This document shows positions 285 to 1,306 of a DNA stretch of 64,000 nt, piece after piece. The notes under the pieces were generated by a model. That model searched no databases. It was not told the DNA's origin and saw nothing but the letters and a program-made list of their open reading frames with translations. The stretch spans positions 1 through 64,000 of the IMG/VR virus record IMGVR_UViG_3300031746_000007. One strand, 5' to 3'. Both the position numbers and the translations under genes were made by a program. Origin of the DNA: a virus. Numbering within the stretch: position 1 is the stretch's first letter; each line of letters opens with the position of its first letter.

Positions 285-944
285 CTAGAGCGTGATTCCG
301 GCGGCGACCAGGCGAGCGTCGACCTCGCTCGCCGGCCACAGGTTCCAGTCGGTCGGGAGAGTAGCGAGCGCGCTCGCCGCCAACACCTTGACCGGCAGGA
401 ACGCCCCCGGGCAAACCTTGTTCGCGTCCGCACTCGCACCGGCGAGGTCGGTGTGGCCGGCGGTGATGAGCCCACGCTGAATCGGGATGAGCAGCGCGAC
501 GAGCTTCACGAGCTTCGCGTACATGCCCGCCGGCGGGGTGTACTTTCGGAAGTCCCCGACTGCGGCGACGCCGATGCCTCGCCAGTTGAACCCGACCGCG
601 TGAGCGCCGCGCACCGAGAGCGGAAGCAGTTGCTCGAGCGTCCACAGCTCGGGGTCGGCGCGGAGCAGGAAGTGGTAGGGGATCGCGCCTCCGGTGCCGA
701 GCCCGACGTTGTTGAAGCGCAGCGCGAGCGCGGGCCCGTCGAGCAGCTCGTTAGGTACCGGGTTCGGGTTCGCGACCGGGTCGAGGTGGTCGAGGTCGGT
801 GCGGTGAATCACGAGGTGGGAGAGTGCCGGACGCGGGAGCACGTGCACGTTGCGCTTGTTGACCGTGCGGCATTCGGCGATGCGGTTCCACACGAACGGC
901 ACAGGCTTCGACGGCAGGTCGGCGGTCGTGTTCGTGATGACCAT
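285..944 (-). CDS. endolysin, N-acetylmuramoyl-L-alanine amidase (Amidase_2/PGRP-like)
   Basis: LVIHRT, YHFLL, GAHAVGFN, IGVAAVGDF, AGH, CPG zinc-amidase motifs; start placed at ATG 944 overlapping upstream TGA. Confidence 0.85.
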   Translation of the reverse strand: MVITNTTADLPSKPVPFVWNRIAECRTVNKRNVHVLPRPALSHLVIHRTDLDHLDPVANPNPVPNELLDGPALALRFNNVGLGTGGAIPYHFLLRADPELWTLEQLLPLSVRGAHAVGFNWRGIGVAAVGDFRKYTPPAGMYAKLVKLVALLIPIQRGLITAGHTDLAGASADANKVCPGAFLPVKVLAASALATLPTDWNLWPASEVDARLVAAGITL

Positions 945-1306
945 CACTTCACCTTGAGCTTGGCTGCGATCGCATTCGAGATCCCGGCGATCTCGCCGAG
1001 GCTCGCCGACACCTCGCGCATGTGGTGTGCCTGGCGCGAGAGCTGGTGTTGCACCTCCTCCTGCCCGGTCGTCTCGCCCCTCGAGCGACGCTGTTCGTAG
1101 AGCGCCTCCTCGAGCTGGTCGCGGTCGATCGCCCCCATCTCGATCAGGATCTCGCCGAGCGGGGGCGCCGCCATGAGTTGCCTCTCGATCGCTGCCTTGA
1201 CCTGCTCGGGGGTCACGAACCCGCGGCGGATGAGAATGTTGCCGAGCGATGTCTGGTCTGCGGATGCCTCTTCGACTTCTTTGTGCTTCGACCCACGCCA
1301 CAGCAT
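944..1306 (-). CDS. MshEN (T2SSE_N)-fold protein with C-terminal coiled coil
   Basis: Two 24-aa xLGxxLIxxGxxxxxxLxxAxxxQ-type motifs joined by a 5-aa linker; GGGAGG RBS before ATG 1306. Confidence 0.75.
   Translation of the reverse strand: MLWRGSKHKEVEEASADQTSLGNILIRRGFVTPEQVKAAIERQLMAAPPLGEILIEMGAIDRDQLEEALYEQRRSRGETTGQEEVQHQLSRQAHHMREVSASLGEIAGISNAIAAKLKVK

Follow-up and report, generated by a model that had tools for sequence, protein, structure and literature searches.

Why would a phage place a gene for a bacterial second-messenger receptor fold among its lysis genes? The question is raised by a gene for a protein of 120 amino acids (aa) close to the left edge of IMG/VR virus record IMGVR_UViG_3300031746_000007. 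We analysed the first 64 kb of this 84.7-kb record (hereafter the window, 64,000 nucleotides); the record is linear and is estimated to be 78% complete (CheckV). An original prediction, made from the letters of the window, had recognised in this gene product the MshEN domain, a receptor fold for cyclic di-GMP (c-di-GMP), and had placed the gene within the lysis cassette. We found that the protein carries the MshEN motif, that its predicted fold matches that of known c-di-GMP receptors, and that its gene directly follows a gene for a small membrane protein in all 11 phage loci that we compared. We consider the chances about even that the protein, tethered to the membrane and probably sensing c-di-GMP, assists or regulates the holin step.

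The gene and its predicted product

The gene and its elements are the following.

944..1306, minus strand: MshEN_N gene, an open reading frame (ORF) for 120 aa with a basic/aromatic N-terminal tail, a 53-residue motif and a long C-terminal helix
1312..1317, minus strand: Shine-Dalgarno sequence GGGAGG, with a 5-nt spacer to the ATG at 1306
1091..1249, minus strand: two 24-residue motifs with a 5-residue spacer (predicted four-helix bundle), residues 20-72
950..1066, minus strand: long C-terminal helix, residues 81-119, rich in small residues (AlphaFold2 pLDDT 82-88)

The start codon at 1306 lies 13 nt past the stop codon (1320-1322) of an upstream gene that encodes 78 aa. A longer reading of 135 aa, from an ATG at 1351, was rejected, as it lacks a ribosome site and shares 32 nt with the upstream gene. 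At its other end, the gene's TGA (946-944) shares an A with the ATG (944-942) of an amidase gene, so that CATCA at 942-946 of the plus strand is TGATG on the minus strand. This overlap, already pointed out in the original prediction, is plainly read in the sequence, and the MshEN_N gene is translationally coupled to the endolysin gene within the lysis cassette.

The proposed 24+5+24 architecture is present: residues 20-43 (SLGNILIRRGFVTPEQVKAAIERQ) and 49-72 (PLGEILIEMGAIDRDQLEEALYEQ) are the two motifs, and residues 44-48 (LMAAP) separate them. The NCBIfam profile NF053729 ("c-di-GMP_motif, MshE-related") aligns residues 21-72 to its positions 2-53 of 53, with a score of 95.6 bits against a cut-off of 38 (E 1.1e-27). 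The match is far beyond chance. In a phmmer search of the sequences in the PDB, Thermus PilF scored 1.1e-14 (6f8l), and MshE and several PilB proteins gave weaker matches. There is no second MshEN motif in the 84.7-kb record.

Nine homologues were used to build an AlphaFold2 model, whose mean predicted local distance difference test score (pLDDT) is 83.6. It contains short helices at residues 21-27, 33-45, 50-56 and 62-75, with pLDDT of 84-93 in the core. A Foldseek search with this model placed only MshE and PilF GSPII domains among its top 10 PDB chains. Nine of these are bound to c-di-GMP and the tenth is apo PilF (6ejf); the root-mean-square deviation (rmsd) is 0.7-1.4 Å over 51-54 residues, at 30-33% identity and a probability of 0.96-1.00. 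The bound chains superpose at 0.7-0.9 Å, with 5htl (MshE), 8pdk (PilF GSPII-B), 8pe0 and 9glg at 0.7 Å over 52-54 residues and a probability of 1.00, a superposition that bears out the proposed fold. The Foldseek E-values are weak (0.07-0.8, and 0.07-0.2 for the four chains at 0.7 Å) because the domain is short. Among viral structures, a BFVD search gave one match, of 90 aa (A0A516LYM6, probability 1.00).

The claim of an MshEN domain holds for the N-terminal four-helix subdomain, but not for the whole domain, whose C-terminal part, MshEN_C, is absent. The protein ends at residue 120 and the model has no strands after the bundle, unlike a full MshEN/T2SSE_N (GSPII) domain. Pfam T2SSE_N gave no match at E <= 1, and the sole Pfam match was to DUF4388 (1.5e-5), a family that includes a related half-motif. 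The protein is thus the N-terminal subdomain MshEN_N alone, with the alpha/beta subdomain and the ATPase missing. The region after the motif, previously described as a coiled coil, is indeed helical, but is better described as a predicted single long helix.

A family of small single-domain proteins

We searched a profile of 12 phage sequences against 1.84 billion cluster representatives, which yielded about 11,000 MshEN-containing proteins. The top 150 of these include single-domain proteins, 109-139 aa long and matching along their entire length, in at least 32 clusters. These 32 clusters (50% identity or less between clusters) share 25-60% identity. Eight close homologues of the window protein, each of about 120 aa, have 57-76% identity to it. 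Most other metagenome and genome matches were set aside as cellular: CheA-like kinases, NfrB-like glycosyltransferases, fusions to REC domains and tandem (MshEN_N)2 proteins. Two sequences, L020 and L028, resembled transmembrane (TM) fusions by hydropathy, and were also set aside as they are actually fusions of MshEN_N to a receiver domain.

In the 32-cluster alignment, D17, S20, G22, G51, L54 and Q72 are invariant, and N23, A39, Q43, L69 and R76 are conserved in at least 90% of clusters. The family has a fixed signature, D-P-x-S-[LIF]-G-N, in which Ser stands in place of the first Arg of the MshEN motif and an invariant Asp occurs three residues before that Ser. The N-terminal tail is basic and conserved, usually with one aromatic residue (M-x-[FW]-x-[KR]…). 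The long C-terminal helix is found in all 32 clusters with a variable sequence, and may be a docking element for a membrane partner.

Conservation of the ligand site

In MshE, hydrophobic Leu clusters hold each guanine of c-di-GMP, and the motif Gly and the residue after it contact the base through their backbone amides. One Gln per motif touches ribose and phosphate, and the side chain of an Arg is stacked against the base (PMC5013675). Mutation of any conserved hydrophobic residue reduced the affinity more than tenfold, as against less than fivefold for changes of Arg9, and the isolated MshEN_N subdomain of MshE binds c-di-GMP with a dissociation constant of 0.35 μM (PMC5013675).

The 120-aa protein keeps or conservatively replaces 10 of the 12 key MshE residues (L21, G22, V36, I40, Q43, L50, G51, L65, L69 and Q72). 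Its sole deviating key residues are S20 and P49, the leading Arg positions of the two motifs, both of which are replaced as originally noted. Neither motif therefore begins with a residue expected to stack on guanine (Arg, or else Lys or Leu).

Work on Thermus PilF bears on this deviation. The GSPII-B domain, with Lys and Leu in place of the two Arg residues, binds c-di-GMP at 6 nM, and its K167L variant binds at 2 nM; the MshEN consensus was accordingly extended to R/K/L at the first motif position (PMC11731258). Motif II of the GSPII-C domain begins with Pro, the only deviation of this domain, which binds at about 0.3-0.5 μM (PMC11731258). P49 of the phage protein occupies the same position. 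GSPII-C has three motifs, however, and which pair binds is not settled (PMC11731258). Because changes of Arg9 are mild in MshE and PilF binds with Lys, Leu or Pro at this position, the loss of the leading Arg residues is less serious than it might seem. By analogy with these proteins, it would not preclude c-di-GMP binding.

Within the family, G22, G51 and Q72 are conserved in 32/32 clusters, Q43 in 31/32 and L69 in 30/32. Seven of the nine core positions that are conserved at 90% or more correspond to MshE ligand contacts (hypergeometric p = 6e-4 within the core). The alignment thus provides moderate evidence that the family still binds a ligand.

A conserved one-pass membrane partner

Two genes for predicted membrane proteins precede the MshEN_N gene in the window.

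1320..1556, minus strand: one-pass membrane protein of 78 aa, the conserved partner gene, with a hydrophobic segment at residues 12-30 and a helical C-terminal tail
1591..1968, minus strand: holin candidate of 125 aa with about four membrane helices

We compared 11 phage loci: the window, L008, L009, L010, L011, L001 (= L172), L170, L171, L173, L174 and L175. The distant ones (L010, L011, L001, L170, L171, L173, L174 and L175) are phage contigs with 29-48% identity to the query alignments; the locus scans included two with sub-alignments of the 32-sequence set. In 11/11 loci, a gene for a one-pass membrane protein occurs immediately upstream of the MshEN_N gene, either overlapping it or within 13 nt. 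Homologues of the 78-aa partner have 68-88% identity, and the partners in distant loci have 78-109 aa. Shared elements are G-P before the hydrophobic segment and [YW]-W-[KRQ]-E-[KR] after it.

The flanks of the hydrophobic segment point to a common topology. In the 78-aa partner, the N-terminal flank has a charge of -1 and the C-terminal flank has three K/R residues, which predicts an N-out/C-in orientation. The same holds for all 10 partners examined, whose N flank is acidic or neutral and whose C flank has 2-6 K/R residues. By the positive-inside rule, the helical tail of the partner is predicted to be cytoplasmic, and the MshEN_N protein must be in this compartment too. An ESM Atlas search with the 78-aa partner gave a mere lead to the BhlA/UviB holin-like peptides (score 0.90).

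Homologues of the 125-aa protein are encoded upstream of the gene pair in L009 (65% identity) and L010 (35%), and a protein of similar architecture is found in L174. Its nearest ESM Atlas clusters are mostly viral. In L009, the most closely related contig, an insertion of about 2 kb with three ORFs that have no family matches (L009:2872-4674) separates the partner gene from that for the four-helix membrane protein. Insertions ahead of the pair are therefore tolerated, but not between its two genes.

Exchange of lytic enzymes around the pair

The gene downstream of the MshEN_N gene in the window encodes the endolysin.

285..944, minus strand: Amidase_2 endolysin (Pfam PF01510, 2e-10; PHROG amidase/endolysin families), with no signal or signal-anchor-release segment

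A conserved linkage to lysis genes had been proposed as a check on the original prediction, and a survey of the loci upheld it: in 9/11, a peptidoglycan hydrolase is encoded within 1.5 kb of the MshEN_N gene. These hydrolases belong to three unrelated families. Amidase_2 enzymes occur in the window and in the metagenome contigs L008 and L009, which have the identical order of partner, MshEN_N and amidase genes (amidase identity 61-62%). L173 encodes a PG_binding_1 + Peptidase_M15_4 protein, and has weak Hol118-like and Rz-like neighbours. The third class, found in L011, L001, L175, L170 and L171, resembles the permuted papain-like C92/YiiX proteins. Its members are located as follows.

L011:694-1203, permuted-papain candidate
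L001:4689-5183, permuted-papain candidate
L175:3149-3652, permuted-papain candidate
L170:2973-3521, permuted-papain candidate
L171:1347-1850, permuted-papain candidate

These proteins have 164-182 aa, with an invariant Ser-His and Cys-x-Glu. Structural matches of an AlphaFold model (pLDDT 78.8) are YiiX (2if6) and a C92 cysteine peptidase from Bacillus (3kw0), with a probability of 0.97-1.00, and the L170 copy matches Pfam Peptidase_C92 (8.5e-5). The proteins are not recognised by PHROGs. We regard them as endolysin candidates.

The strictly conserved neighbour of the MshEN_N gene is thus the upstream one-pass membrane protein and not the amidase, and the downstream gene is not conserved. Unrelated hydrolases that are swapped around a constant membrane unit are typical of lysis cassettes.

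A different arrangement is found in the low-GC phages L002-L006. Here the MshEN_N module has canonical Arg residues and is joined in one polypeptide to a membrane segment and a coiled coil; one or two genes downstream lies the gene for a recognised holin (phrog_3427, 1e-26). In L004 (IMGVR_UViG_3300035205_000606), an H-NOX gene (HNOB, Pfam 2e-46) overlaps the start of the fused MshEN_N-TM-coiled-coil gene by one base (L004:5429-6639); a thioredoxin-like secreted protein and the holin (phrog_3427, 1e-26) follow. This coupling of a gas-sensor gene to a c-di-GMP-type module is unusual in a phage. In L006, a cyclic-nucleotide-binding membrane protein (L006:1086-1739; cNMP_binding 1e-14, POPDC-like 2e-14) is encoded between the fused MshEN_N gene and the holin gene.

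A possible role in holin function, and alternatives

If the MshEN_N protein is a tethered accessory or regulator of the holin step, the following mechanism can be proposed. The small cytoplasmic protein would be produced together with its one-pass partner at the end of the late operon. The partner would insert N-out/C-in, with its basic, helical C-terminal tail towards the cytoplasm. This tail could pair with the C-terminal helix of the MshEN_N protein, which would tether the module to the inner membrane beside the holin machinery. The module would bind one molecule of c-di-GMP, or of a close guanine-containing cyclic dinucleotide, and its occupancy may alter the partner's share in hole formation. 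The pair would then resemble a cytoplasmic antiholin or co-holin in setting or gating the time at which the signal-less Amidase_2 endolysin gains access to the wall. The gene order and coupling would fit those of a holin/antiholin pair.

A bolder form of this proposal seems to us possible, but doubtful. It holds that the protein is the first virus-encoded c-di-GMP receptor, and that tethered MshEN_N gates holin triggering so that the phage reads the sessile or motile state of its host to time lysis. The module would be widespread in uncultured phages, with an invariant Ser-for-Arg site, and would be swapped among cassettes with different endolysins.

Several observations weigh against a ligand-sensing role in lysis. 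At the ligand site, the Arg of the first motif is Ser in 32/32 clusters, following the invariant Asp, and L65 is R, K or C in 6/32. The conserved Gly and Leu residues also serve the fold, so their conservation is no specific proof of ligand binding. That the host uses c-di-GMP signalling is an assumption, and the 84.7-kb phage record itself contains no GGDEF domain. As for the lysis genes, the partner had been called holin-like in the original prediction, and its one hydrophobic segment and helical tail agree with that description, but neither the 78-aa partner nor the 125-aa protein matches a holin or any other family in Pfam, PHROG or NCBIfam. Finally, no hydrolase was recognised in the examined flanks of L010 and L174.

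The four-helix bundle might instead be a protein-binding scaffold that helps to assemble or position the membrane lysis proteins and senses no nucleotide. We consider such a ligand-free adaptor unlikely, though it accounts equally well for the strict pairing with a membrane protein. The replacement of Arg by Ser and the Asp17 residue are fixed across the family, and the fold is known to survive without binding in XpsE (PMC5013675). Non-binding relatives include the N-domain of XpsE/GspE and PilB(N) bound to PilZ, and the Foldseek list includes the PilB(N)-PilZ complexes 7lkm and 7lko. The ligand contacts argue in the other direction. Q43, Q72 and both Gly residues that read the guanine edge are kept in 31-32/32 clusters despite the low identity (25-60%) among them, whereas XpsE, which has lost binding, is changed at exactly the Gly, Leu and Gln positions (PMC5013675).

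An intact-looking ligand site is also compatible with a nucleotide sponge, a protein produced abundantly at a late stage of infection that sequesters c-di-GMP or a guanine-containing defence signal. Its position next to lysis genes would then be incidental, and the consequence would be a loosened biofilm matrix or a blunted cyclic-nucleotide defence. The late-operon position does imply high expression, and MshEN also binds cyclic GMP-AMP, though weakly (PMC5013675). We nevertheless find this improbable. A sponge would have no need of a membrane anchor, whereas the one-pass partner occurs in 11/11 loci and the module of other phages is built into a protein with a membrane segment. Moreover, late synthesis is badly timed with respect to abortive-infection signalling, and each 120 residues would bind only one ligand, with an expected affinity that is sub-micromolar to micromolar.

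The partner itself might instead be an inner-membrane spanin (i-spanin) with a periplasmic coiled coil, in which case the MshEN_N protein would be an unrelated cytoplasmic neighbour. For the partner in L010, the PHROG search gave weak similarity to Rz-like spanins (E 0.016 and 0.037), no other spanin is recognisable in the window cassette, and the fused forms in low-GC phages show the i-spanin layout (N-in, TM, coiled coil). However, the charges in 10/10 partners predict the topology opposite to that of an Rz-type i-spanin, the L010 matches are below significance, and no frame for a lipoprotein o-spanin was seen among the ORFs of the window cassette. A spanin would also leave the strict coupling of the two genes unexplained. 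We regard this explanation as very improbable.

Least credible of all is a decoy that, at the membrane, mimics the N-terminus of PilB, MshE or GspE so as to block type IV pili or type II secretion, e.g., for superinfection exclusion: the nearest solved relatives are N-domains of pilus ATPases, PilB is a known route by which phages disable pili (Aqs1; PMC13436744), and the phage has an integrase gene (46019-47050) indicative of a temperate lifestyle, but the MshEN_N gene is at the end of a late structural/lysis operon rather than among early or lysogeny genes, is linked to hydrolases and membrane proteins rather than to immunity genes, and encodes neither MshEN_C nor an ATPase-interacting part. 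The sponge and the pilus decoy had both been offered in the original prediction; neither gained specific support, and both fit poorly with an obligatory membrane partner and a late-operon position.

Comparison with known systems

The closest structural parallel is the MshEN_N subdomain of Vibrio cholerae MshE (PDB 5HTL; PMC5013675), which likewise has two 24-residue motifs, a 5-residue spacer and a four-helix bundle; the two superpose with an rmsd of 0.7-0.9 Å at 31-33% identity. The phage protein keeps the L-G pair, the LxxxLxxQ pattern, the turn Gly and both Gln residues. It differs from MshE in having Ser and Pro for the leading Arg residues and Asn for Asp12, and a long C-terminal helix in place of the alpha/beta subdomain MshEN_C and the ATPase. 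It is also encoded by a phage, in a gene adjoining those for a membrane protein and an endolysin. By sequence, the best match is Thermus PilF (6f8l residues 300-365, independent E-value 7e-7), whose domains, by contrast, sit in a large ATPase and carry the C-terminal subdomain (PMC11731258).

Escherichia coli NfrB provides a precedent for an MshEN module that gates a membrane process. It is a c-di-GMP-activated glycosyltransferase with a C-terminal MshEN domain, and makes a glycan that is a phage receptor (PMC8669469, PMC8669472). The NfrB-related NCBIfam profiles are the second-best matches of the phage protein (NF008411, 2.5e-6; NF012033, 6.8e-9). NfrB is, however, a host protein in which the module is fused to an enzyme, whereas the phage protein stands alone.

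Two phage lysis proteins are comparable in other respects. The T4 antiholin RIII, a small cytoplasmic protein of helical structure, is proposed to tune the timing of lysis by acting on that part of the one-pass holin T which lies in the cytoplasm (PMC8385771); the MshEN_N protein may have a similar role. The two are unrelated in sequence and fold, RIII is not known to bind a nucleotide, and holin T is oriented N-in (PMC8385771). LysF1b of F1-cluster mycobacteriophages is a lysis-cassette protein required for efficient, timely lysis, and its one-pass, N-out/C-in layout is the same as the architecture predicted for the 78-aa partner (PMC13056207). This likeness is one of architecture alone; the host envelope differs, and no MshEN-type neighbour is reported for LysF1b.

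The phage and its late operon

The window encodes typical structural and packaging proteins, as well as an integrase.

43374..44954, minus strand: large terminase (PHROG match)
41178..42929, minus strand: portal (PHROG match)
30578..31990, minus strand: major head protein (PHROG match)
25747..27726, minus strand: tail sheath (PHROG match)
46019..47050, minus strand: tyrosine integrase (phrog_1, 4e-23), just beyond the terminase gene

These gene matches identify a phage of the myovirus type that, because an integrase gene is present just beyond the terminase gene, is probably temperate. The large terminase had no matches at 1e-20 among deposited phage genomes.

The late genes are all on the minus strand, and the late operon terminates at the left edge of the window. 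In the order of transcription, its end consists of three tail-fibre-like genes, a gene for a YadA-head-repeat protein, and the 125-aa, 78-aa, MshEN_N and amidase genes. A convergent plus-strand frame bounds the region after the amidase gene. A scan of positions 1-3000 for promoters and terminators found nothing above background.

The tail-fibre-like genes (2797..4122, 4126..5505 and 5843..7141, minus strand) are consecutive and paralogous, and all diverge towards the C-terminus. The first two have a common N-terminal segment, …LESQGNI.LAV.TTG…RPARI..GDYSA.PF.TIQAAIDAL…. This pattern suggests a set of alternative receptor-binding proteins. The block ends, immediately before the lysis genes, with the 185-aa YadA-head-repeat protein (1968..2525, minus strand; Pfam 4.5e-11), which is of the adhesin type.

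Significance

The original prediction knew of no described lysis module with an MshEN domain, and our searches agree. A tblastn search of 50,697 deposited phage genomes for the 120-aa protein was negative at E <= 0.01. In the literature on MshEN together with phages, holins, endolysins or antiholins, we found only the work on NfrB as a receptor for phage N4 and unrelated reviews, and no description of such a module. The MshEN domain itself is well known. Its stand-alone, Ser-variant form, encoded by phages and locked to a one-pass partner in lysis cassettes, is described neither in those deposited genomes nor in the papers searched.

Membrane energisation is known to affect when phages lyse their hosts, as does superinfection in the case of T-even phages. 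To our knowledge, no lysis system reads a host second messenger. If our proposal is correct, a c-di-GMP-type receptor in lysis cassettes would link the biofilm or motility state of the host directly to phage release. The module recurs with three types of endolysin and adjoins an H-NOX sensor in one phage; it would then amount to a small, portable, ligand-controlled lysis switch. The family is also a natural test of the MshEN binding rule, as a fixed Ser takes the position at which Arg, Lys or Leu stacks on guanine in every domain studied so far. Even without a ligand, the strictly conserved two-gene membrane unit is a previously undescribed, common component of lysis cassettes in uncultured phages.

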